In this document: positions 3,925 through 38,284 of the stretch, piece after piece
Position numbering within the stretch: the stretch's first letter is position 1
Layout of the letters: every line of letters begins with the position of its first letter
Virus record (IMG/VR): IMGVR_UViG_2778261592_000009
Coordinates: 1-38,284 of that record
DNA length: 38,284 nucleotides
Direction: 5' to 3' (one strand)
Source of the DNA: a virus
Lineage: Duplodnaviria; Heunggongvirae; Uroviricota; Caudoviricetes
Notes under the pieces: model-generated
Database searches by the model: none
What the model saw: the letters and a program-made list of their open reading frames with translations, nothing else
What the model was told of the DNA's origin: nothing
Program-made: the position numbers and the translations under genes

Positions 3925-4010
3925 CAGGTTCAGAAATGGCGAAAGTCGGTCTGCGGGAACAGAACCGACTTTCAGGTGCAAATCGTAACACACTCATTGC
4001 GGGAGGAATT

Positions 4011-4940
4011 ATGGCAAACACTGCTGAGATATTCAATTTTCCAGTGCCGGATGCGGCACAAAAGGAGCCGCGCGTGGCAGATCTCGATGATGGTTATACG
4101 CGCATTGCAAATGAGTTGCTGGAAGCTGTGATGCTGGCCGGATTAACACAGCACCAGCTTCTGGTCTTCCTGGCTGTCATGCGCAAAACATATGGCTTTA
4201 ATAAAAGACTGGATTGGGTGAGCAACGAGCAACTTTCCGAATTGACCGGGATATTGCCGCACAAGTGTTCTGCTGCAAAAAGCGTTCTGGTAAAGCGTGG
4301 GATTCTTATTCAGAGCGGGCGAAATATCGGCATTAATAATGTGGTCAGTGAATGGTCAACATTACCCGAATCAGGTAAGAAAAATAAAGTTTACCTGAAA
4401 GAGGTAAATTTACCTGAATCAGGTAAGAAAAGTTTACCCAAATCAGGTAAAGGCGTTTACCCGAATCAGGTAAACACAAAAGACAAACTAACAAAAGACA
4501 ATATAAAACCTTTTTCGTCCGAGAATTCTGGCGAATCCTCTGACCAGCCAGAAAACGACCTTCCTGTGGTGAAACCGGATGCTGCAATTCAGAGTGGCAG
4601 CAAGTGGGGGACAGCAGAAGACCTGACCGCCGCAGAGTGGATGTTTGACATGGTGAAGACCATCGCGCCATCAGCCAGAAAACCGAATTTTGCAGGGTGG
4701 GCTAACGATATCCGCCTGATGCGTGAACGTGACGGACGTAACCACCGCGACATGTGCGTGCTGTTCCGCTGGGCATGCCAGGACAACTTCTGGTCCGGTA
4801 ACGTGCTAAGTCCGGCCAAACTCCGCGACAAGTGGACCCAACTCGAAATCAACCGTAACAAGCAACAGGCTGGCGTGACAGCCGGAAAATCAAAACTCGA
4901 CCTGACAAACACTGACTGGATTTACGGGGTGGATTTATGA
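4011..4940 (+). CDS. O: replication initiator, lambda O-like
   Basis: ADLDDGYTRIANELLEAV ... LAVMRKTYGFNKRLDWVSNEQLSELTG parallels lambda O (recalled); GGGAGGA RBS before ATG 4011 (maximal ORF starts 3921); carries the origin iterons. Confidence 0.85.
   Translation: MANTAEIFNFPVPDAAQKEPRVADLDDGYTRIANELLEAVMLAGLTQHQLLVFLAVMRKTYGFNKRLDWVSNEQLSELTGILPHKCSAAKSVLVKRGILIQSGRNIGINNVVSEWSTLPESGKKNKVYLKEVNLPESGKKSLPKSGKGVYPNQVNTKDKLTKDNIKPFSSENSGESSDQPENDLPVVKPDAAIQSGSKWGTAEDLTAAEWMFDMVKTIAPSARKPNFAGWANDIRLMRERDGRNHRDMCVLFRWACQDNFWSGNVLSPAKLRDKWTQLEINRNKQQAGVTAGKSKLDLTNTDWIYGVDL
4362..4510 (+). repeat. ori-lambda-like origin: five 17-bp iterons TTACCYRAATCAGGTAA plus AT-rich tract
   Basis: Iterons at 4362..4378, 4391..4407 (degenerate), 4410..4426, 4434..4450, 4457..4473, each an inverted repeat TTACC...GGTAA; A-rich tract 4474..4510; inside O as in lambda. 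Confidence 0.7.
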
Positions 4941-5638
4941 AAAACATCGCCGCACAGATGGTTAACTTTGACCGTGAGCAGATGCGCCGGATCGCCAACA
5001 ACATGCCGGAACAGTACGACGAAAAGCCGCAGGTACAACAGGTAGCGCAGATCATCAATGGTGTGTTCAGCCAGTTACTGGCAACTTTCCCGGCGAGCCT
5101 GGCTAACCGGGACCAGAACGAACTGAACGAAATCCGCCGCCAGTGGGTTCTGGCTTTCCGGGAAAACGGGATCACCACGATGGAACAGGTTAACGCAGGA
5201 ATGCGCGTAGCCCGTCGGCAGAATCGACCATTCCTGCCATCACCCGGGCAGTTTGTTGCCTGGTGCCGGGAAGAAGCATCCGTTACCGCCGGGCTGCCAA
5301 ACGCCAGCGAGCTGGTTGATATGGTTTACGAGTATTGCCGGAAACGTGGCCTGTATCCGGATGCAGAGTCTTATCCGTGGAAATCAAACGCGCACTACTG
5401 GCTGGTTACCAACCTGTATCAGAACATGCGGGGCAATGCGCTGACTGATGCGGAATTACGGCGCAAGGCTGCCGATGAACTGGCCTGTATGACAGCGCGA
5501 ATTAACCGTGGTGAGGCGATACCTGAACCAGTAAAACAACTTCCTGTTATGGGCGGGAGACCGCTTAATCGTGTTCAGGCTCTGGCGAAGATCGCAGAAA
5601 TCAAAGCGAAGTTTGGGCTGAAAGGAGCAAGTGTATGA
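4937..5638 (+). CDS. P: replication protein P (DnaB helicase loader), near-identical to lambda P
   Basis: 233 aa beginning MKNIAAQMVNFDREQMRRIANNMPEQYDEKPQVQQ, matching lambda P as recalled; ATGA overlap with O stop. Confidence 0.9.
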   Translation: MKNIAAQMVNFDREQMRRIANNMPEQYDEKPQVQQVAQIINGVFSQLLATFPASLANRDQNELNEIRRQWVLAFRENGITTMEQVNAGMRVARRQNRPFLPSPGQFVAWCREEASVTAGLPNASELVDMVYEYCRKRGLYPDAESYPWKSNAHYWLVTNLYQNMRGNALTDAELRRKAADELACMTARINRGEAIPEPVKQLPVMGGRPLNRVQALAKIAEIKAKFGLKGASV

Positions 5639-5808
5639 CGGGCAAAGAGGCAATTATTCATTATCTGGAGACGCACAAGAGCTTCTGTGCGCCGGACGTT
5701 GCTGTGACAACAGGTGTGACATTAACCAGCATAAATCAGGCTGCGGCAAAAATGGCGCGGGCAGGAATCCTGGTCATTGATGGTAAGGTCTGGCGAACGT
5801 TTGTTTAA
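5635..5808 (+). CDS. ren: Ren-like protein, short form (57 aa)
   Basis: ATG 5635 overlaps P stop; MTGKEAIIHYLETHKSFCAPDVA...AKMARAGILVIDGKVWR resembles the N-terminal part of lambda Ren; absent from ORF track because under 60 aa. Confidence 0.65.
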   Translation: MTGKEAIIHYLETHKSFCAPDVAVTTGVTLTSINQAAAKMARAGILVIDGKVWRTFV

Positions 5809-5954
5809 CGGTTAGCTACTCAGGATGATAGGGCGGGGCAAGTGAGTATGAAGCGGATTTTAAGGAATGCCATCAGAGTTTGGAAATAAAGTGGGTTTTC
5901 TAGTGGCAAGAGACTTGATAATATTTAGTCCTTTGAATCCAAGGAGATAGGGTT

Positions 5955-6449
5955 ATGAGAAAATTTATTTTAGCCTTTGTTATAAGTGCCTCGTTTACAG
6001 CAAATGCTGGTGTAGAGAAGTTAGGGCCGTGGATAACAAAGTCTGAGATAAATAAAATGACTGACCAGACTGACTTTGTGGCTCTTAATTTATCACCAGA
6101 TTCATATAACAAAGCAGGTACTGATCGTGCAACTTCACTGGTGTTGCGTTGTAGTGATAACAAAACAGATGCCTATTTATCATTCAATGATTATATGGGT
6201 TCGGACAACCCAAGAATTACAGTGCGGTTAGATGGCGGAAAGCCGGTCAAGAGTGTTTGGGGAGGTGGGGAAGGCGGTGATTCTGCATTTGCTCCACAAC
6301 CAATACAATTTATAAAGACCTTGGCTAAGCATAAAAAAGCTATTTTTGGGTTTGAACCTTATGGATCAACTATGCAAGTAGTTGAGTTTGACTTGTCTGA
6401 GATTGATAAGGTTGTGGAAAAAATTTCACAGTCTTGCAATTGGAAATGA
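5955..6449 (+). CDS. hypothetical secreted protein (moron), 164 aa with signal peptide
   Basis: AAGGAGA RBS; N-terminus MRKFILAFVISASFTANA; own terminator downstream; AT-rich relative to neighbours. Confidence 0.6.
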   Translation: MRKFILAFVISASFTANAGVEKLGPWITKSEINKMTDQTDFVALNLSPDSYNKAGTDRATSLVLRCSDNKTDAYLSFNDYMGSDNPRITVRLDGGKPVKSVWGGGEGGDSAFAPQPIQFIKTLAKHKKAIFGFEPYGSTMQVVEFDLSEIDKVVEKISQSCNWK

Positions 6450-6465
6450 CAAAAAAATTTCATAT

Positions 6466-6493
6466 GAACCCAGTTGGCGCTGGGTTTTTTATT
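6466..6493 (+). terminator. rho-independent terminator
   Basis: AACCCAG(6467..6473)-TTGGCG-CTGGGTT(6480..6486) followed by TTTTTTATTT. Confidence 0.6.
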
Positions 6494-7086
6494 TCAGTAG
6501 CCAATAATGCATTCAAAATCTCTTACTTGAGAAACGGCCTATTTGAGATTTCAGTCGTGGCAGGATGATCAGTTGATTCGAGTATTGACGCATTTGCGTT
6601 CGGAGCGATTACAGTAGATTGTAAATAATAATGAGAAACACATAGCCACATAGCCACCCCGTGGTATTGAAACCATATAATGTTGGATTTGAAAACAGAT
6701 CTTTTCCCATGTATTAATAACTACATCCCCGCGAGTAATTCAAAAAGGAGGGCCCAATTTTGTCCGAGTTTTTGTATTCCCCCGCATGCCGCTGCGGAGC
6801 ACTACATCTGAGTGTCTGACTAGGGGATAAAATTAGACTGGATAGTGAGAAGAAAGTGGCGCGCTAGGCTGTGCCGAGTGCTACCAGTACACCTTGGGGG
6901 TGTGCAGCTTTCGCCGAGACTGTAGTGGGTATCGGTTAATGCACGAAAAACCGAGAGGTCAGACAACCAATTTGCCGTAGGATTGTTTCCGGTGCGATAC
7001 CGGTCTACTAACTGAAAGCAATGCGAAAAAGCATAAACTCGGTCCTTCAGTCGCCCTACACACTATTTACTAAGAAGGGCTGAAGC

Positions 7087-12340: not shown

Positions 12341-12919
12341 TTAAGTATTAGTCATTGAATGTTTTATGTGCTCGAATAATGTGAGAGCATCATCAGATAA
12401 TTCACGCCGAGAGATCCAGTCATGCTCATTCAATTGCCATGCAAGGCCTAAAGCTTGATTCAATCCTGGATATGCAATTGGTGAGTCATCAGAGTTACTA
12501 CTTGCGGCTTCCATTTTGGCTAATGGAATTCTTAAACGATTGATCTTACGTTTATAGATCTGTATCTCATTTCGCACATGATTCAATGGAGATCCATCAT
12601 TTTTTGCAAATTGATCTAATGTTCTTACTAGTTCATACATTCCTAAAACCCAGAGATAGGAAGAAGTGATATGATCACTTAAGTCGTGCATTGGGTTTTT
12701 TAGATATCCAGTCTTGATGAGTTCAGCATCATCATTAACTAGGCGAGAATCTAGTGCACCTAGATGTTGAAGTGTTATTGTCGACCATTGATTGTGGGCC
12801 GTAATTGCATGGGAGCAGTCAACCCACCTCTTGTTTCTGTCTGCATCAAATAATCCAGCAATGTAAGCTCTAAGCCTACCATTGTGGGGCTTCTTTAATT
12901 CCTCAGACAAATTATCCAT
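12341..12919 (-). CDS. hypothetical protein (192 aa), antisense orphan between lysis and packaging modules
   Basis: ATG at 12919 with AGGAGA 6 nt upstream (maximal ORF to 12946 starts at GTG and would overlap the terminase start); AT-rich; no recognisable motifs. Confidence 0.6.
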   Translation of the reverse strand: MDNLSEELKKPHNGRLRAYIAGLFDADRNKRWVDCSHAITAHNQWSTITLQHLGALDSRLVNDDAELIKTGYLKNPMHDLSDHITSSYLWVLGMYELVRTLDQFAKNDGSPLNHVRNEIQIYKRKINRLRIPLAKMEAASSNSDDSPIAYPGLNQALGLAWQLNEHDWISRRELSDDALTLFEHIKHSMTNT

Positions 12920-30616: not shown

Positions 30617-30969
30617 TGCGATACAGACGTGAAGACGCCGATGGCGATTACACCTTTGGCAGCGGTGATGACACCTGGCTGATTAACTCACCGGATGCCG
30701 TGGCACAGGCGGTAAAAACGCGATTCGAATTGTGGTATGGGCAATGGTTTCTCGACACCACCGAGGGGACTCCGTGGATCCAGTCCGTACTCGGTAAGCA
30801 GAAGCCGGAAACCTACAACCTGTCCGTCCGTAAGCGCATCCTCGAAACGCGGGGCGTTAAATCAATCCTCTCTTTCAATACGACGGTGGATACCACGACC
30901 CGACGTGTCATGTTTTCCGCTGAAATCGACACTCTCTATGGAATAACGACTGTTACATCGGAGGCGTAA
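30616..30969 (+). CDS. baseplate protein candidate (gpW / gp25-like size class, 117 aa)
   Basis: ATGA overlap with spike gene; position before J-like gene. Confidence 0.5.
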   Translation: MRYRREDADGDYTFGSGDDTWLINSPDAVAQAVKTRFELWYGQWFLDTTEGTPWIQSVLGKQKPETYNLSVRKRILETRGVKSILSFNTTVDTTTRRVMFSAEIDTLYGITTVTSEA

Positions 30970-32168
30970 TGGCTCTGAACCTTGATTCTCTCGGTTTATC
31001 TGCAAAGGTAACCGCGGAGGGGATCGGTGCGCCTGATTATCAGACGATACTCAGCACCATGATTAGCTATTTTCAGCAGATTTATGGCAGTGATGCCTAC
31101 CTCGAACCGGACAGCAAAGACGGCCAGATGGTGGCTCTGATGGCGCTGGCGATTCATGATGCCAATAATATGGCGATAACTGTCTACAACTGTTTTTCAC
31201 CGGCAACCGGCTATGGGGCTGCACTGACCAGTAACGTGAAAATAAATGGTATTTCACGTAAAGGCGCGACGAACTCTACGGTTGATTTGCTTCTTACAGG
31301 AACTGCCGGAACAACCATCATTAATGGCAGCGTGAAAGACAGTAATAATGTGATATGGCGTTTGCCTGCTTCAGTGGTGGTCGGCGTGGATGGTACAGTG
31401 ATGGCGACCGCAACATGTTCCGTCAGTGGTGCAGTGGCGGCGCTGGCTGGAACTATCACTGAAATTAATACGCCAACCCGTGGCTGGGTTTCGGTAACTA
31501 ATCCTGCTGCGGCTACTGTTGGCTCTCCGGCAGAAACTGATGCTGAGTTACGTATCCGCCAGTCGCAAAGTGTTGCGTTGCCATCAATAACCCCATTTGA
31601 AGCACTGGATGGTGCTGTTTCTAATGTTACCGGTGTAACCCGCCACAAACTCTATGAAAACGATACTGGTTCGGAGGACGGTAACGGGTTACCGCCACAC
31701 TCTGTTGCTGTAATTGTGGATGGCGGTGATGTGACGGATATTGCTCAGGCTATCAGAGGGAATAAAGGCCAGGGGACAGCCACTCACGGTACAACATCCG
31801 TTACGGTTCCGGATAAATACGGCAATCCCCATGTAATCAAATTCTCGCGTTCCAGTGATGTACCTGTTTATGCCCGGATTAAATTAAAAGTTTTTACGGG
31901 TTATACCTCACAGATAGGGCAGCAGATCCAGCAGGCTATTTCCGACTATATCAATAGTCTGATGATTGGTGATTCGGTCCTTTTAAGTCGCATTTACTCA
32001 CCGGCGAATCTTGGCGTGGTGAGTGGCGGGAATGCACGCTATTACGATATTCAGGAACTGACGATTGGGAAATCCCCGGGGGCTTTGTCGTCATCAAACA
32101 TTGATATCAGATACAACGAATCTGCGTCCTGTACACCGGAAAATATCGTTATAACGGTGGAGTCATGA
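30969..32168 (+). CDS. baseplate J-like protein
   Basis: 399 aa; size and position in baseplate cluster upstream of gpI-like and tail-fibre genes. Confidence 0.7.
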   Translation: MALNLDSLGLSAKVTAEGIGAPDYQTILSTMISYFQQIYGSDAYLEPDSKDGQMVALMALAIHDANNMAITVYNCFSPATGYGAALTSNVKINGISRKGATNSTVDLLLTGTAGTTIINGSVKDSNNVIWRLPASVVVGVDGTVMATATCSVSGAVAALAGTITEINTPTRGWVSVTNPAAATVGSPAETDAELRIRQSQSVALPSITPFEALDGAVSNVTGVTRHKLYENDTGSEDGNGLPPHSVAVIVDGGDVTDIAQAIRGNKGQGTATHGTTSVTVPDKYGNPHVIKFSRSSDVPVYARIKLKVFTGYTSQIGQQIQQAISDYINSLMIGDSVLLSRIYSPANLGVVSGGNARYYDIQELTIGKSPGALSSSNIDIRYNESASCTPENIVITVES

Positions 32169-32845
32169 GCAAATACACCGAACTGATCACGAACTACCAC
32201 GCCACCAAACCTAAATTTCTTGCACATGTTGATCTGATGACCCGGCCGCTTATTGATGTTGCGGCTGCCACCAGAGGGCTGATTACTGCATTTGATATTG
32301 ACTCTGCGGTTGGTGTGCAACTTGACATTCTTGGATTGTGGATCGGACGTAGCCGTGTTGTCAGCCAGCCTATCTCAGGTGTCTATTTCAGCTGGGATAC
32401 CGACGGGCTTGGATATGATCAGGGTGTATGGCAGGGGCCATACGATCCTGATTCCGGATACATGTACCTCAGCGATGAAACTTATCGTGTCATCCTTAAA
32501 GCGAAGATTGCGATTAATAACTGGGACGGACGGAATGATTCGCTTCCAGCAATTCTTGACGCGGCGACAGCAGGATCCGGACTGCGAATGCAGATAGTCG
32601 ATAACCAGGACATGACGATATCGGTCTGGCTCTTTCCTGATACTGATATTTCAGATGTATCGCGTGAGTTAATTGCTGCAATTAAACAGGGATATCTCAC
32701 AGTAAAAGCCGCCGGGGTTTGGGCGGGTGGCATTGAAACACCTTCGGTGGAAACTCCATCGGAAGGTTCAAAATTTTTTGGTTTTGATATGGATAACGAA
32801 TTCATCAGTGGTTTTGATGTAGGGGCATGGGGAGTATTACTCTGA
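32165..32845 (+). CDS. baseplate / tail protein (P2 gpI-like position), 226 aa
   Basis: ATGA overlap with J-like gene; immediately upstream of tail fibre gene. Confidence 0.6.
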
Positions 32846-33516
32846 TGGCGAAAAATGACTTTAAAGCGTTTGCAACTGATCGGAATGCCAATGTTATGTC
32901 GCAGGAGGAATGGGAAGCGTTGCCTGCGCTTTTATCCGGATTTACAGCAGGGAAAGCATCCAGTGCGCAAGTCAATAAGGTTATTCGGCAGGCCAGCTTT
33001 ATTGCTGCAGCTCTGGCCCAGTTTGTAAGTGACAAAACGCAACGGGATGTGCTTGATAATGGTGATCTGCCCGGTTTTGTTGAATTGCTGGGATCGGGGT
33101 TTGCTGTTGAATACCTGAGCCGCAAGAATCCGTTTGGTGATATCAAATCGGACGGCACGGTACCAACGGCTCTCGAAAACCTTGGTTTGGGAGAAGCGGC
33201 GAAAAGGAATGTGGGGACTGGGGCGAATCAGATACCAGACATGTCAGCTTATTCATCAGGATCTGGCTGGCAAAAATTGCCTGATGGTTCAATTGAACAG
33301 TGGGGAAGAATTAATTTCCCGACTAACGCCGCGGCGGTATCTACAAATGTGACTTTCCCCATTCCTTTTACGCAGGAGCCAGACGTAGTGATTGTATATG
33401 ACGGCGGTTTTGGTGGTGGGAATATGTGGGGCGCAACTAACTGGACGCGAACAGGATTTGTTGCGCATTGTAACTATGGATTTGAAGGTGGAGCTTTCTT
33501 TGCGAAAGGGCGTTAA
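32845..33516 (+). CDS. tail fibre protein (constant N-terminal part + currently expressed variable C-terminal part)
   Basis: ATG 32845 overlaps upstream stop (maximal ORF from 32827); crossover site at 33170..33196 lies inside the gene; followed by fibre assembly gene. Confidence 0.65.
33170..33196. repeat. left inversion crossover site (hix/gix-like) inside tail fibre gene
   Basis: CTCTCGAAAACCTTGGTTTGGGAGAAG; 15 of its 3' nt (TTGGTTTGGGAGAAG) recur in inverse orientation at 35019..35045; resembles the AAACC..GGTTT core of Hin/Gin/Cin/Pin sites. Confidence 0.6.
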
Positions 33517-33518
33517 TT

Positions 33519-33959
33519 ATGAAATATTTATATATTGATAATCTGGCGTACCCTTACGCCCTACAGTCTGTTTACGCTGCAAAAGGGCAATGGCCAGAAG
33601 GAAAAGGCGTAGACATAGACGAAGCTATTTTCAGGGAATATTTCCATGACACGCCGCCCGAAGGTAAGCGCAGAATTACCGCAGGCGACGGAATGCCAGC
33701 TTGGGCAGATGTTCCTCCACCAACACGTGAAGAACAAATTGCATCAGCCGAAACTAAAAAGCAGCAATTGATTAACCAGGCCAACGAATACATCAACAGT
33801 AAACAATGGCCAGGTAAAGCATCAATTGGTCGTCTGAAAGGTGAGGAACTGGTGCAATATAATTTGTGGCTGGATTATCTGGACGCACTGGAACTGGTCG
33901 ATACTTCCGGTGCGCCAGATATTGAATGGCCTACGCCTCCGGCAGTTCAGGCCAGATGA
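33519..33959 (+). CDS. tail fibre assembly chaperone (Tfa/U-like)
   Basis: 146 aa ending APDIEWPTPP, typical Tfa C-terminus; directly after tail fibre gene. Confidence 0.8.
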   Translation: MKYLYIDNLAYPYALQSVYAAKGQWPEGKGVDIDEAIFREYFHDTPPEGKRRITAGDGMPAWADVPPPTREEQIASAETKKQQLINQANEYINSKQWPGKASIGRLKGEELVQYNLWLDYLDALELVDTSGAPDIEWPTPPAVQAR

Positions 33960-34533
33960 CGTCCGGCGCTGTGCTGGTATCTGTTGCCGTCACCGCGTCA
34001 ATGTAATCCAGCACAGCGTTAAGTCGGGTGTTTTCTGGCTGCGTCAGCTTCCGCCCAGCCTGTAATTTCAGTTGAATCAGACTGATGGAAGCCATTGCAG
34101 CATCAATCAGCGACTGGCGCTGTGCTTCTGCCGCTTCTACTGCGGCGCTATGCTGTGCCTCGGTATCCGTCACCCATTTCTCACCATCCCATTTATCGTA
34201 TGGCGTTAACGGGGCGATAGTGGTTGTATTTTCAGGGTAATCACCCGGAACTGTGATTTCTTTGGTATCTCCCGTTTCGGTACTATAGACAACTTCACCG
34301 CGATGGTCTGGCACATATTCCCATGAATTTAAATCTACAGAGCGACAGATTGCATAACCAGCTTTATGTGTACCTGGTGCATCCAGACAGGAACATGCCG
34401 GGATACCGACTCCGACAGCGAGATATTCAGTTGATGTAGAAATATATTCCCGCGTTTCGCCATCATAGTTATGTACGATGATTTCCCCATCATTTAAAGC
34501 GTAACCGTCTTTTCCCAAAATAGCCTGTTCCAT
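33931..34533 (-). CDS. alternative tail fibre assembly chaperone (Tfa'/U'-like) within invertible segment
   Basis: 200 aa on opposite strand ending APDVIWPELPEA; converges on Tfa with 29-nt 3' overlap. Confidence 0.75.
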   Translation of the reverse strand: MEQAILGKDGYALNDGEIIVHNYDGETREYISTSTEYLAVGVGIPACSCLDAPGTHKAGYAICRSVDLNSWEYVPDHRGEVVYSTETGDTKEITVPGDYPENTTTIAPLTPYDKWDGEKWVTDTEAQHSAAVEAAEAQRQSLIDAAMASISLIQLKLQAGRKLTQPENTRLNAVLDYIDAVTATDTSTAPDVIWPELPEA

Positions 34534-35073
34534 TTATGCAGCCCTCACAATGTAGTTAAATGCAATGTTTCGCGGGCTACCATCACCGGCGCCGGAACTG
34601 ACATGATTTGTTCTATCCATTCGTTTACTGTCATTTGTTGTTCCACTCCCATCCTTCCACGAATACAATAACCCGCCATCGCCAATGCTCAACTGCACCG
34701 CAAATACGGATGATGTACCTAATTCACCAACATCTCTAGCCATGAGTGGGTTCCCTGTCCATCCATGCATTTCATGGTTATGTTCAAGGATAGATGCTGC
34801 CTGACTTGAAAGCAGCAGTCTCGCGGAATCAACACCTCGCCCATCATCCCACCCGCGAATAAACTCACCGCGCAAATCCGGTAATTTTAACTTTGGGTAA
34901 GCCTTTGCCAGTTTTGGGTACTCTTCGGCAGAAAAAGGTGCACCGTTGCATTTCAGCCAGCCTGTTGGTGGTGTGGCTGAAGGCCACGGAACAGGCACAC
35001 CAACGGGTAACGCTGAGCCTTCTCCCAAACCAACGTTTATGAAAATGCAGAAATAACGAGCAAATGGCATCAT
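34534..35073 (-). CDS. alternative tail fibre C-terminal (receptor-binding) segment, Sv'-like
   Basis: Encodes LGEGSALPVGVPVPWPSATPPTGWLKCNGAPFSAEEYPKLAKAYP, the conserved junction of Mu/P1/e14-type invertible fibres; crossover site lies in codons 13-20 in the same codon phase as in the expressed fibre gene. Confidence 0.65.
   Translation of the reverse strand: MMPFARYFCIFINVGLGEGSALPVGVPVPWPSATPPTGWLKCNGAPFSAEEYPKLAKAYPKLKLPDLRGEFIRGWDDGRGVDSARLLLSSQAASILEHNHEMHGWTGNPLMARDVGELGTSSVFAVQLSIGDGGLLYSWKDGSGTTNDSKRMDRTNHVSSGAGDGSPRNIAFNYIVRAA
35019..35045. repeat. right inversion crossover site (inverted copy)
   Basis: CTTCTCCCAAACCAACGTTTATGAAAA; reverse complement shares TTGGTTTGGGAGAAG with site at 33170..33196. 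Confidence 0.6.
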
Positions 35074-35099
35074 TCCTGCTTTTGTCAGGGGGATCTACC

Positions 35100-35654
35100 A
35101 TGCTTATTGGCTATGTACGCGTATCAACAAATGACCAGAACACAGATCTACAACGTAATGCGCTGAACTGTGCAGGATGCGAGCTGATTTTTGAAGACAA
35201 GATAAGCGGTACAAAGTCCGACAGACCAGGACTGAAAAAGCTGCTCAGGACATTATCGGCAGGTGACACGCTGGTAGTCTGGAAACTGGACCGACTGGGG
35301 CGCAGTATGCGGCATCTTGTCGTGCTGGTGGAGGAGTTGCGCGAACGAGGCATCAACTTTCGTAGTCTGACGGATTCAATTGATACCAGTACCCCAATGG
35401 GGCGCTTTTTCTTTCATGTGATGGGTGCCCTGGCTGAAATGGAGCGTGAACTGATTGTTGAACGAACAAAAGCTGGACTGGAAGCAGCTCGCGCACAAGG
35501 ACGAATTGGTGGACGTCGCCCCAAACTTACACCAGAACAATGGGAGCAGGCCGGACGATTAATTGCATCAGGCGTTCCTCGCCAGAAGGTGGCGATCATC
35601 TATGATGTTGGTATATCGACACTGTATAAGAAGTTTCCGGTCGGAGATAAATGA
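35100..35654 (+). CDS. site-specific DNA invertase, Hin/Gin/Cin/Pin serine recombinase family
   Basis: MLIGYVRVSTNDQNTDLQRNAL ... WKLDRLGRSMRHL ... GRIGGRRPKLT closely follows E. coli Pin / Mu Gin as recalled; ATG 35100 (maximal ORF from 35064). Confidence 0.9.
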   Translation: MLIGYVRVSTNDQNTDLQRNALNCAGCELIFEDKISGTKSDRPGLKKLLRTLSAGDTLVVWKLDRLGRSMRHLVVLVEELRERGINFRSLTDSIDTSTPMGRFFFHVMGALAEMERELIVERTKAGLEAARAQGRIGGRRPKLTPEQWEQAGRLIASGVPRQKVAIIYDVGISTLYKKFPVGDK

Positions 35655-35714
35655 AACCGTAGCACGTCGTATGCAAGAAGATCGTGCTGCGGTTTATGCT
35701 TATCACTTAAAGAC

Positions 35715-36584
<870 letters not shown>

Positions 36585-36664
36585 CTAACTCTTTGAATTT
36601 ACATAGTACAAAAAAGATACTTTTCCTCATAATGTGAATTAATTTTATGTTTCGTTTGATGATT

Positions 36665-36729
36665 GGACCGGTCTCGAAAACCGGAGTAGGGGCAACTCTA
36701 CCGGGGTTCAAATCCCCCTCTCTCCGCCA
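36665..36729 (+). other. attR core: 3' 65 nt of a tRNA-Ser-like gene (anticodon stem to CCA end), no 5' half present
   Basis: GGACCGGTCTCGAAAACCGG (anticodon loop CTCGAAA, anticodon CGA), long variable arm GAGTAGGGGCAACTCTACC, T-arm GGGGTTCAAATCCCC, acceptor TCTCTCCGCCA; upstream sequence cannot form D-arm or acceptor 5' strand. Confidence 0.6.
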
Positions 36730-37313
36730 CTTTATCAATGACTTATCTCCCGACTTCCCGCCTTGCTTTTCCTAAACAGAACAATCGTAGAATATTCTTG
36801 AAGGGTTAGATCGTCACTGTTTTCTGTTCGATACTGTGACATTCAGCACTTGATTCGCTATGGATCTGACAGGAAGGTTTTGAGCGAAAATCTGCAGTTA
36901 TTCAGTCGTTTTCTTATCGGTCACCATTATTCTTTTAGACATTGATCCTACAAAGCTGCCGCAAAGTTGGTGGTGGGAACTGAAGTTGCGTAGAGAAGGG
37001 GTCAATACCCGGAGGCAAACATGGGCTGGCAAAAGTGTAGCGGTATTAGGCGCAGCTATTTAGCCTAGTTATGTTTTATGAAAACTTGATATCATATAAG
37101 TGTCTTACTTATTGGCTGTAAATAAGTTTTTCCTAAGGAATTGTTTCTTGAGTATCATTTGTAACTGTAACGTAATTTATAATTCTTTGCTTTATTGTTA
37201 CGGTATTTTTTATCACACCCTATTTTTTATGTGGTTTTTTATACTGAAGTTTGGCAAAGTGAACTTTATATGCATATACTTCATCCTAGTTTCAGTTAAA
37301 TTGGGTGGATGAT

Positions 37314-38057
37314 ATGGCAACTACATGTTCAGTTATATTGATTTTGGAGTCCTTTGATGTTTATTTCGGAAAAGAGAGTGTGTTTCTGGAGAGAGGTTCA
37401 TCTGTACTTGTCGACTCTAGCTCTAGAGATTTCTTCCTGACATATCCTGAAAGAGTGATAGTGGCAGATTTTGGCGCTGAGTTTATTAGTCGCTATTTGA
37501 AAGCTAATAACTTAAGGGATATTTCTGATTATAGGGAATATCCATCTTATTTAAAAATAAACTTTGCTGACTTCAGTTTAATTAAAGGATTAATTAGTTG
37601 GGCTAATCACTGTGCTGAATACATAGAAATTTTTGATGAGTCTATTGCTTTTACATGTCTCTCTGCATTTTCTTCTGAAAAACAATTTGGAGTATTTCTG
37701 TTTGGATGTTTGAAAAGCACAGGGGCTAAAGTTAAAACGATTATTCATACGGATTTATCTGCACCATGGCGTCTTAAGGATATATCATCAAGATTATATC
37801 TCAGCGAAAGTTTACTAAAGAGGAAATTGAAAGAAGAGGGGGTATCATTCAGTAAGATCATACTTGATGAGAGGATGCAAATGGCTGAATATTTACTCAG
37901 CACTCGTTGTTATCCTATTAGTAAAGTAGCTAAGGTCTGTGGTTATGCCAGTATCTCATACTTTACTTATGTATTTAGACGTTATTTTGGTGTTTCTCCA
38001 AGTCAATACTCTCAGAGGAGTTCAGAAAGTAAAATTCTTACTCACCAGGGAATCTGA
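37314..38057 (+). CDS. AraC-family transcriptional regulator (Rns/AggR/PerA-like style), 247 aa
   Basis: C-terminal HTH pattern ISKVAKVCGYASISYFTYVFRRYFGVSPSQY; GGTGGA RBS before ATG 37314 (maximal ORF from GTG 37305); very AT-rich; outside prophage. Confidence 0.7.
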   Translation: MATTCSVILILESFDVYFGKESVFLERGSSVLVDSSSRDFFLTYPERVIVADFGAEFISRYLKANNLRDISDYREYPSYLKINFADFSLIKGLISWANHCAEYIEIFDESIAFTCLSAFSSEKQFGVFLFGCLKSTGAKVKTIIHTDLSAPWRLKDISSRLYLSESLLKRKLKEEGVSFSKIILDERMQMAEYLLSTRCYPISKVAKVCGYASISYFTYVFRRYFGVSPSQYSQRSSESKILTHQGI

Positions 38058-38098
38058 TCATTGTTCTTGCCCCCTTATTTCCAGACAGGGGGTGTATC

Positions 38099-38284
38099 TT
38101 AAGTTAACGTTACCCGCTGACGTCGATATTCTCGCGGAGAGCGATAACCCAACGCACTGTGCGGATGGTTTTCATTGTAATGTTCGATCGCCACTGCAAG
38201 ATTATGCAATGCCGTTCTTACATTCGGTTTCGGCATGAACGCGATGTAGTCTTCCTTCATCGTTTTCACGAACCTTTCTGCCAT
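38099..38284 (-). CDS. transposase (integrase-core type) C-terminal portion, partial at window edge
   Basis: ORF runs into window end; [18 protein letters not shown] resembles the conserved C-terminal end of rve-type IS transposases (recalled pattern). Confidence 0.5.

Follow-up and report, generated by a model that had tools for sequence, protein, structure and literature searches.

Organization of the locus

The analysed stretch of DNA (referred to as the window) comprises 38,284 nucleotides of IMG/VR virus record IMGVR_UViG_2778261592_000009 and contains two kinds of phage genes. A CI-like repressor, an O-like replication protein and a Q-like antiterminator are lambdoid in type, while a tail sheath, a tape measure protein and a baseplate hub are typical of contractile tails. 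The original prediction had assigned the locus to a lambdoid prophage; this holds for the early genes, but not for the tail module, which is contractile. The morphogenesis module is apparently complete, tightly packed and 97% identical to Escherichia phage vB_EcoM-606R2. The window carries no integrase. Its chromosomal flank consists of an AraC-family regulator gene and an IS3 fragment, and the ykgR/pao region lies farther out in matching E. coli genomes. Immediately downstream of the locus described here, in the place where e14 has mcrA, there is a type IV restriction gene, PD-T4-3/CMoRE.

The features of the locus are listed in Table 1. The fibre gene starts at 32845, where its start codon forms an ATGA overlap with the stop of the upstream gene, and therefore the constant part of the fibre spans M1-E117. 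The last 79 nt of this part (33118-33196) are common to e14-type prophages, which places a mosaic boundary at 33118. Two different C-termini follow in opposite orientations, each with its own Caudo_TAP gene. The presence of one assembly chaperone per orientation had been proposed beforehand and is evident from the gene layout. The two chaperone genes are convergent and overlap by 29 nt. The ORF on the silent side, which starts with a short fixed leader, is 179 aa long at present and would be 124 aa long after inversion (the leader followed by the Gp53-like domain). This ORF resembles e14 StfE2.

Table 1. Coordinates of the features at the locus (positions in the window)
Feature	Position	Strand	Basis and remarks
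Constant N-terminal part of the tail-fibre gene (M1-E117)	32845..33195	+	ORF/translation; PHROG tail-fibre families match residues 1-121
Left crossover site, pixL-type, 26 bp	33170..33195	.	CTCTCGAAAACC-TT-GGTTTGGGAGAA; central TT at 33182-33183
Invertible segment	33184..35031	.	Between the two central dinucleotides; 1.85 kb
Fibre C-terminus A, Gp53-like_C domain	33196..33516	+	Pfam PF21882, E = 2.6e-9; joined to the constant part, fibre of 223 aa
Tail-fibre assembly chaperone A, 146 aa	33519..33959	+	Caudo_TAP (Pfam), E = 4.6e-30; PHROG 188; co-oriented with C-terminus A
Tail-fibre assembly chaperone B, 200 aa, TfaE-like	33931..34533	-	Caudo_TAP (Pfam), E = 2.5e-31; 87% identity to e14 TfaE
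Fibre C-terminus B, phage tail Collar domain	34534..35019	-	Pfam PF07484, E = 5.5e-15; silent now, fibre of 278 aa after inversion
Right crossover site, pixR-type, 26 bp	35020..35045	.	TTCTCCCAAACC-AA-CGTTTATGAAAA; central AA at 35032-35033
Short fixed leader MMPFARYFCIFINVGLGE, opens the silent-side ORF	35020..35073	-	Leader also in e14 stfE
Pin-type serine DNA invertase, 184 aa	35100..35654	+	Pfam Resolvase, E = 1.3e-51, and HTH_7, E = 3.9e-13
Candidate recombinational (Fis-dependent) enhancer stretch	35118..35189	.	Homologous to the enhancer annotated inside P1 cin

Crossover sites and reading frames

The variable part of the locus is bounded by an inverted repeat, the 20-nt arms of which (33177-33196 and 35019-35038) are 95% complementary and are separated by a spacer of 1822 nt. 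The arms share an exact 15-nt core, TTGGTTTGGGAGAAG, located at 33182-33196, and recurring in reverse complement at 35019-35033; the cores enclose a unique part (33197-35018) of 1822 bp. Each crossover site consists of two 12-bp half-sites arranged as an imperfect dyad around a 2-bp core, and the two sites are inverted relative to each other. The central TT of the left site is the reverse complement of the AA of the right site, so that the core dinucleotides match. Aligned with gix (Mu), cix (P1) and pix (e14), the window sites reveal the common layout of the family. Moreover, the left site is identical to pixL and the right site to pixR of e14 in E. coli K-12 at all 26 positions each. Thus, the resemblance to hix/gix cores noted in the original prediction extends to alignment with both gix and cix and to full identity with pix. 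Its two inverted sites with 15 shared nucleotides were likewise confirmed, but the length of 27 bp given for them was not, as the sites comprise 26 bp.

It might be argued that such a repeat is a chance similarity having no recombination function. By length, an exact inverted repeat of 15 nt is not extreme: upon resampling of the 4.6-kb region, exact inverted repeats of 16 nt were obtained in 5 of 60 cases, although the test is crude and includes palindromes. Repeat length on its own is therefore not overwhelming evidence. However, a search of the 38 kb for AAACSTTGGTTTGGGAGAA, a 19-nt pattern, with no more than three mismatches returned only the two sites, against a shuffle expectation of 0.01. 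What settles the reality of the crossover sites is their identity to those of the known e14 pix system, and we regard the probability of a chance repeat as negligible. Apart from these two, the window has no further crossover sites of the kind that would allow multiple inversion as in p15B Min. Another inverted repeat (35070-35095 and 35949-35974, 22/26 complementary) flanks the invertase gene and was considered as a second invertible unit. We treat it as a chance occurrence, because 8 of 60 Markov resamples scored as high and its arms lack a pix-like core.

The core is read in codon phase 1 both in the fibre gene and in the minus-strand ORF (35073..34534). Translation yields ENLGLGE across the left site and NVGLGE followed by GSALPVGVPVPWPS across the right one. 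As it stands, the window encodes a fibre of 223 aa, and inversion in silico produces an intact fusion ORF of 278 aa. In this respect the original prediction proved accurate: it had positioned the left site at the fibre codons LENLGLGE, proposed the same codon phase for both sites and, consequently, expected the 117-aa N-terminus to be fused in frame to an alternative C-terminus.

Invertase and candidate enhancer

A serine invertase gene had been predicted to abut the segment, and the recombinase found there has both Resolvase and HTH_7 domains. Its identity is 96% with PinE, 82% with P1 Cin and 79% with Mu Gin, and orthologous genes are named pinE in RefSeq. The catalytic Ser9, located within the motif VRVSTNDQ, aligns with that of Gin, Cin and PinE, the residues invariant in the family are kept and the ORF is intact. 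Among PDB structures, the protein matches those of Gin (3UJ3, E = 1.1e-95; 4M6F, about 1e-95), and its C-terminal HTH domain matches structures of the Hin DNA-binding domain. In the public collection, 3,416 blocks list the identical protein.

The 5' part of the invertase gene includes a stretch (35118-35189) that is identical to e14 pinE at 72 of 72 positions, as opposed to 92% identity over the rest of the gene. The same stretch is identical at 57 of 72 positions to the enhancer that AF234173 annotates in P1. A simple Fis-motif scan of the 5' end of the gene detected no convincing pair of sites and was thus uninformative, so the stretch is considered a candidate enhancer on the basis of homology only. 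In a promoter and terminator scan of 32600-36700, the counts did not exceed the shuffle expectation, and no promoter could be named for either the invertase or the silent-side ORF.

Both orientations in public genomes

The original prediction was staked on the segment being observed in more than one orientation, and public genomes contain both. In E. coli assemblies, the exact 223-aa fibre of the window is present on 34 contigs and the exact 278-aa predicted fusion on 29. Assembly GCA_000215285.2 (locus L020), in which the 124-aa silent-side ORF is annotated as a gene, differs from the flipped window by a single mismatch in 9,185 nt, whereas its comparison with the window as it is gives 1385 differing positions, all within 33091-35018. 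Two near-clonal chicken isolates, Z1323CEC0002 and Z1323CEC0004, share flanks that are 100% identical, the difference between them being an exact inversion bounded by the 20-nt repeats. Junction queries run against 5,426 complete E. coli genomes were covered to at least 80% in 10 genomes for the orientation of the window and in 53 for the flipped one. The breakpoints of the natural inversions lie exactly inside the repeat. The flipped 9,185-nt match and the fusion protein on 29 contigs, together with the pix identity, refute the reading of the repeat as a chance similarity. One practical consequence is that assemblies of the same strain may legitimately differ by a 1.85-kb inversion.

From these other assemblies we infer that the lysogen carrying the window itself switches. 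The opposite view would be that in this strain the segment is frozen, that is, the sites and the gene are intact but inversion no longer takes place (for example, because the invertase is silent), and the states seen in databases reflect old and rare events. Such a view could draw on the fact that the evidence for switching comes from other assemblies, as well as on the lack of a recognisable invertase promoter in the 32600-36700 scan. Damaged or locked relatives do exist: the vB_EcoM-606R2 record has an invertase gene truncated to 315 nt, and some loci have IS insertions. However, the nearly 1:1 ratio of the exact proteins, the existence of an otherwise identical 9.2-kb stretch in the flipped state and the near-clonal isolates distinguished by the inversion only all speak against it, as does the intact invertase ORF with its family-invariant residues. 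In addition, other Pin paralogues can act in trans on pix sites (PMC12529663). We therefore consider a frozen segment very improbable.

Proposed mechanism and role of the switch

Based on these observations, we believe, with high confidence, that the locus is a site-specific inversion switch of the Pin/Gin family, of the e14 'P segment' type, situated where the late operon of a contractile-tail E. coli prophage ends. The switch as such is not novel; it represents the already known biology of the e14 P-segment system, and the original prediction rightly described it as well known. That PinE inverts the e14 P segment has been demonstrated by whole-genome sequencing and PCR (PMC4272514) and by qPCR (PMC12529663).

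Judging from the biochemistry of Gin, Hin, Cin and Pin and from the e14 experiments, the inversion would be Fis-dependent and would proceed through an invertasome. Dimers of the 184-aa invertase would bind both 26-bp pix sites and, joined by a Fis-bound enhancer near the start of the invertase gene, would form the invertasome on supercoiled DNA. Both sites would then be cut at the central TT/AA, half of the complex would turn by 180 degrees, and religation would leave the 1.85-kb segment inverted. Transcription and translation, coming from the baseplate genes, would pass the fixed 117-codon N-terminus and proceed into whichever C-terminus the orientation provides: the Gp53-like one along with the 146-aa chaperone in the window state, or the Collar-domain one along with the 200-aa chaperone in the flipped state. 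In this way, a population of lysogens would give rise to virions with two alternative receptor-binding tips. In Mu and P1, the two orientations result in virions with different host ranges, and by analogy the two fibre tips would be expected to change the host range here. Prediction of the prophage host range should weigh both tips. As to annotation, the minus-strand 179-aa ORF labelled 'phage tail protein' is the silent alternative C-terminus rather than an independent gene.

It is tempting to consider whether the switch serves mainly, or also, as a phage-defence toggle of the host, such that in the flipped state the fixed 18-codon leader joined to the Gp53-like domain makes a 124-aa StfE2-like protein blocking adsorption of other phages. 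There is a precedent in e14, where StfE2, in which the StfE start is joined to a gp53-like C-terminus, prevented T2, and reportedly other phages, from adsorbing (PMC12529663). The leader is conserved at the beginning of e14 stfE, the 124-aa ORF does arise upon in-silico inversion and is a called gene in L020, and PD-T4-3 lies directly downstream, so the prophage end carries defence cargo. Nonetheless, unlike e14, the prophage has an apparently complete morphogenesis module, leaving the classical fibre-switch role available. Moreover, the Gp53-like fibre of the window is divergent from e14 StfP (31% identity for the whole proteins), the 32600-36700 scan found no promoter for the silent-side ORF, and the effect in e14 came from a plasmid-expressed protein. 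All in all, the defence role seems unlikely. Slightly less likely still is that the cassette is a two-purpose device, combining the fibre-tip swap with a flipped-state 124-aa ORF akin to e14 StfE2 and forming, with PD-T4-3/CMoRE, a phase-variable defence locus. If that were true, such a locus would mark the end of an otherwise functional prophage.

Comparison with known inversion systems

The interpretation that we favour, a fibre-tip switch, can be compared with several known inversion systems. Hin/hix, responsible for flagellar phase variation in Salmonella, relies on a recombinase of the same family, which acts through an invertasome that includes a Fis-bound enhancer, as proposed above. 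However, Hin flips a promoter without fusing genes, whereas in the window a coding segment is flipped. The P1 C segment (Cin; also Min of plasmid p15B) is similar to the window in its invertase (82% identity) and the central TT, and over the enhancer annotated in the 5' end of cin the window is identical at 57 of 72 positions. Yet the C segment is 4.2 kb long, and cin points toward the segment and has cixL at its 3' end, unlike in the window. Plasmid p15B has multiple crossover sites, while the window has two only. The Mu G segment (Gin) has a similar layout, with constant Sc, variable Sv-U and opposite U'-Sv', and its invertase gene, as in the window, lies just outside one site and reads away. 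The AAACC-NN-GGTTT pattern of the sites and the encoded NLGL motif are also common to both, with Gin being 79% identical. The differences include the segment length (about 3 kb), the central dinucleotide (TC in gix, TT in the window) and the fibre C-termini, which have no sequence relation to those of the window.

The e14 P segment of E. coli K-12 (stfP-tfaP-tfaE-stfE-pinE) is the closest, having the same gene order and orientations. In addition to both identical 26-bp sites, the 96% identical invertase and the fully conserved enhancer-equivalent stretch, it has a TfaE that is 87% identical, a conserved N-terminal portion of the Collar C-terminus and convergent tfa genes with the same 29-nt overlap. 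The unique segment differs in length, 1797 bp in e14 against 1822 bp in the window. The original prediction considered the 117-aa constant part to be unusually short, which is not the case: although Mu has about 170 aa and P1 about 454 aa, e14 StfP has only 101 aa. Of the constant part, however, only the last 26 aa or so are common to e14 and the window; the N-terminal 90 aa or so differ. The baseplate differs too, with DUF2612 (Phage_Wedge1) in the window but YmfQ (Mu gp48-type) in e14. The Gp53-like side has diverged as well, as reflected by the 31% identity of the fibre and the 43% identity of its chaperone. Finally, PD-T4-3 takes the place of the downstream mcrA, and the host element of the window looks complete, whereas e14 is a 15-kb remnant. 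In other words, e14 is integrated at icd and combines a remnant of a Mu-type baseplate with mcrA downstream, while the window differs in the baseplate, constant region, cargo and flank. The cassette of the window is thus the e14 switch on another prophage and not e14 itself. This is an example of modular exchange, in which the same sites and invertase serve two unrelated baseplate modules by means of the shared 79-nt adapter.

Both orientations of the segment occur in public genomes

Four independent lines of evidence say that the tail-fibre segment flips between the orientation of the window (as-is; 223-aa fibre) and its inverse (flipped; 278-aa fibre). Exact look-up of the invertase protein retrieved a locus in GCA_000215285.2 that is like the window in the baseplate, invertase, GIY-YIG gene and AraC-family regulator flank. 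The window flipped in silico shows a single mismatch (at 33091) to this locus in 9,185 nt, whereas the as-is window has 1,385 differences from it, confined to 33091-35018. Exact-sequence look-up gave 34 contigs with the as-is 223-aa fibre and 29 with the predicted 278-aa fusion; 4 further contigs have a one-substitution variant of the fusion. Thus, both orientations, which the original prediction had proposed to seek in sequence data, are present in public assemblies. Junction queries (250 + 250 nt, counted at at least 80% coverage) gave 10 as-is and 53 flipped matches among 5,426 complete E. coli genomes.

Two near-clonal chicken isolates, Z1323CEC0004 and Z1323CEC0002, whose prophage is 92-94% related, have 100% identical flanks and differ by an exact 1,866-bp inversion bounded by 20-nt repeats. 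In both, ISVsa5 has inserted just upstream of the fibre gene, and an IS3-family element separates pinE from the right crossover site. Since the isolates still differ by the inversion despite these common insertions, it seems that flipping either still works when enhancer and invertase gene lie about 1.3 kb further off or is driven by another Pin acting in trans. For e14, the cryptic prophage of E. coli K-12, both orientations have been reported together in clonal cultures by WGS and PCR (PMC4272514), and qPCR has tied inversion to PinE: it amounts to about 30% in the wild type, whereas a pinE mutant has the segment locked (PMC12529663).

The closest deposited phage record, Escherichia phage vB_EcoM-606R2 (ON470579.1), has the same cassette at 3983-6524, with the invertase gene cut to 315 nt and a silent fibre fragment of 168 nt; this copy is probably locked. 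Because there are host genes at its end, the record apparently covers part of a prophage and not packaged DNA.

Cassette organization and in-frame fusion

Features of the cassette and its flanks (window coordinates, as-is orientation)
Feature	Position	Strand	Remarks
Baseplate_J gene	30969-32168		upstream of fibre gene
DUF2612/Phage_Wedge1 baseplate gene	32165-32845		upstream of fibre gene
Fibre gene, 223 aa	32845-33516	+	Gp53-like_C domain
Left crossover site	33170-33195		26 bp
Caudo_TAP chaperone, 146 aa (Tfa-146)	33519-33959	+	
Caudo_TAP chaperone, 200 aa (Tfa-200)	33931-34533	-	convergent with Tfa-146
ORF with phage tail Collar domain	34534-35073	-	
Right crossover site	35020-35045		26 bp
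Fixed 18-codon leader	35020-35073	-	outside the segment
Serine recombinase, 184 aa	35100-35654	+	Resolvase and HTH_7 domains
Enhancer candidate	35118-35189		
PD-T4-3 gene	35715-36488	-	ORF to 36539; directly 3' of invertase
Right flank	36540-38284		AraC-family regulator gene 37305-38057; IS3-family transposase fragment at window end

PHROG assignments (tail fibre, tail-fibre assembly twice, tail collar fibre and DNA invertase) are in accord with this layout. The fibre gene starts at an ATGA overlap with the stop codon of the preceding gene. The 3' ends of the two chaperone genes share 29 nt (33931-33959), and the same overlap is found in tfaP/tfaE of e14 (12518-12546 in our e14 region of E. 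coli K-12 MG1655). A C-terminal motif, ...DTS.APD(I/V)(E/I)WP..P, is common to both chaperones; its two coding stretches are neighbours on opposite strands.

The left site codes for E-N-L-G-L-G-E, ending with codon 117 of the fibre gene, and the right site codes on the minus strand for N-V-G-L-G-E in the same phase. In-silico inversion between the cores produces an uninterrupted 278-aa ORF in which the constant 117 aa lead into GSALPVGVPVPWPS... and the Collar domain. The in-frame fusion of the 117-aa N-terminus to an alternative C-terminus was therefore anticipated correctly, as was a separate chaperone for each orientation, each Caudo_TAP gene being co-oriented with one C-terminus. The constant part had also been described as unusually short, but 117 aa is typical of the Pin type: e14 has 101 aa, and the part is longer in Mu (~170 aa) and P1 (~454 aa).

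Crossover sites, invertase and enhancer candidate

A repeat search identified inverted arms of 20 nt (33177-33196 and 35019-35038; 95% complementary, 1822 nt apart). Their exact common core, TTGGTTTGGGAGAAG, occupies 33182-33196 on the left and, as the reverse complement, 35019-35033 on the right, in agreement with the claimed inverted crossover sites sharing 15 nt. A 19-nt pattern derived from both sites, with up to 3 mismatches, has two matches in the 38-kb window, both being the crossover sites (shuffle expectation 0.01), and the looser family core AAACSNNSGTTT matches only the same two places; hence, there are exactly two crossover sites. In a crude test that also counted palindromes, exact inverted repeats of 16 nt were reached in 5 of 60 resamples. 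Repeat length by itself is not compelling, and the decisive evidence is site identity, reading frames and natural flips. Another inverted repeat (35070-35095 and 35949-35974; 26 nt, 85% complementary), enclosing the invertase gene and some of the GIY-YIG gene, is probably due to chance, its score being equalled in 8 of 60 resamples and a pix-like core being absent from it.

Crossover sites written from outside to inside
Site	Outer arm	Centre	Inner arm
Window left	CTCTCGAAAACC	TT	GGTTTGGGAGAA
Window right	TTTTCATAAACG	TT	GGTTTGGGAGAA
Mu gix, both sites	TTATCCAAAACC	TC	GGTTTACAGGAA
P1 cixL	CAATCCTAAACC	TT	GGTTTAAGAGAA
P1 cixR	TTATCCAATACC	TT	GGTTTAAGAGAA

The proposed likeness to known invertase sites was borne out by alignment with the fetched e14, Mu G-segment and P1 C-segment-end sequences: the window sites are each 26/26 identical to e14 pixL and pixR and have the family layout of gix and cix. 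The repeat TTGGTTTGGGAGAAGG, which according to PMC12529663 borders the 1797-bp P segment of e14, is present in both of them. The serine invertase expected to abut the segment is an intact Pin-type gene beside the right site, its product being 96% identical to PinE of e14, 82% to Cin and 79% to Gin. It matches Gin crystal structures 3UJ3 and 4M6F (E ~1e-95) and retains the catalytic Ser9. P1 cin contains an annotated enhancer; its counterpart in the window (35118-35189) matches e14 at 72/72 positions (the remaining invertase gene, 92%) and P1 at 57/72, which fits a putative conserved cis element.

Proposed mechanism

We observed matching central dinucleotides, an adjoining intact Pin gene, an enhancer-homologous stretch, two in-frame C-termini with chaperones and both natural states. 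By Gin/Hin biochemistry, invertase dimers on both sites and the Fis-bound enhancer would form an invertasome on supercoiled DNA, TT/AA would be cleaved at both sites with 2-nt staggers, and subunit rotation and religation would leave the segment inverted. The late operon would run from the constant 117 codons into either the Gp53-like tip (variable C-terminus) and Tfa-146 or the Collar tip and Tfa-200. As in Mu and P1, tip exchange may alter receptor specificity.

Silent-side ORF and neighbouring defence gene

The fixed leader (MMPFARYFCIFINVGLGE), conserved with the beginning of e14 stfE, starts an ORF that runs on into the C-terminus that is silent at the time. After a flip the ORF has 124 aa (leader and Gp53-like domain) and is called as a gene in the GCA_000215285.2 locus (5600-5974). 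Its e14 analogue, StfE2, has been reported to block T2 adsorption (PMC12529663). By this analogy the silent-side chimera might have a host-defence role, which we consider improbable; the idea is strengthened because PD-T4-3/CMoRE adjoins. The gene in question matches the PADLOC model PD-T4-3 (E = 2.7e-140) and has a LEM-3-like GIY-YIG domain; PD-T4-3 is CMoRE, a type IV endonuclease cutting 5hmC or glucosyl-5hmC DNA (PMC12923530). In e14 the same slot is held by mcrA, another type IV modification-dependent restriction enzyme, and the slot looks like a cargo site where functionally analogous defence genes get swapped.

Host prophage and relation to known systems

The prophage had been considered lambdoid. 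This holds for the early genes (CI-like repressor, O-like replication protein, Q-like antiterminator) but not for the virion module, which is of the contractile-tail type (sheath, tape measure protein, baseplate hub) and is 97% identical to vB_EcoM-606R2 and ~82% to Salmonella phage SEN34. The host is E. coli, many chromosomes of which match the right flank at 99.5% identity. Other strains (L008 and L009) have at this chromosomal site an e14/SfV-like prophage that ends with the same invertase and PD-T4-3.

Homology to e14 and other Mu-type-baseplate prophages starts at 33118, 64 nt before the crossover-site centre. Within the constant fibre part, what is common to them is confined to the final 79 nt (33118-33196), at 92-94% identity. 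This adapter codes for 27 residues: 16, a P/Q position and 10 more. The identical 184-aa invertase adjoins baseplate modules of two unrelated kinds (DUF2612/Wedge1 and Mu gp48/YmfQ), and the expressed position at such loci is taken by the Collar C-terminus in some cases and by the Gp53-like one in others, making the cassette a widely exchanged module. The gene order of e14, stfP-tfaP-tfaE(-)-stfE(-)-pinE, equals that of the window. The element is the e14-type P segment with Pin, already known biology, carried here by a prophage that is apparently complete and different from e14.
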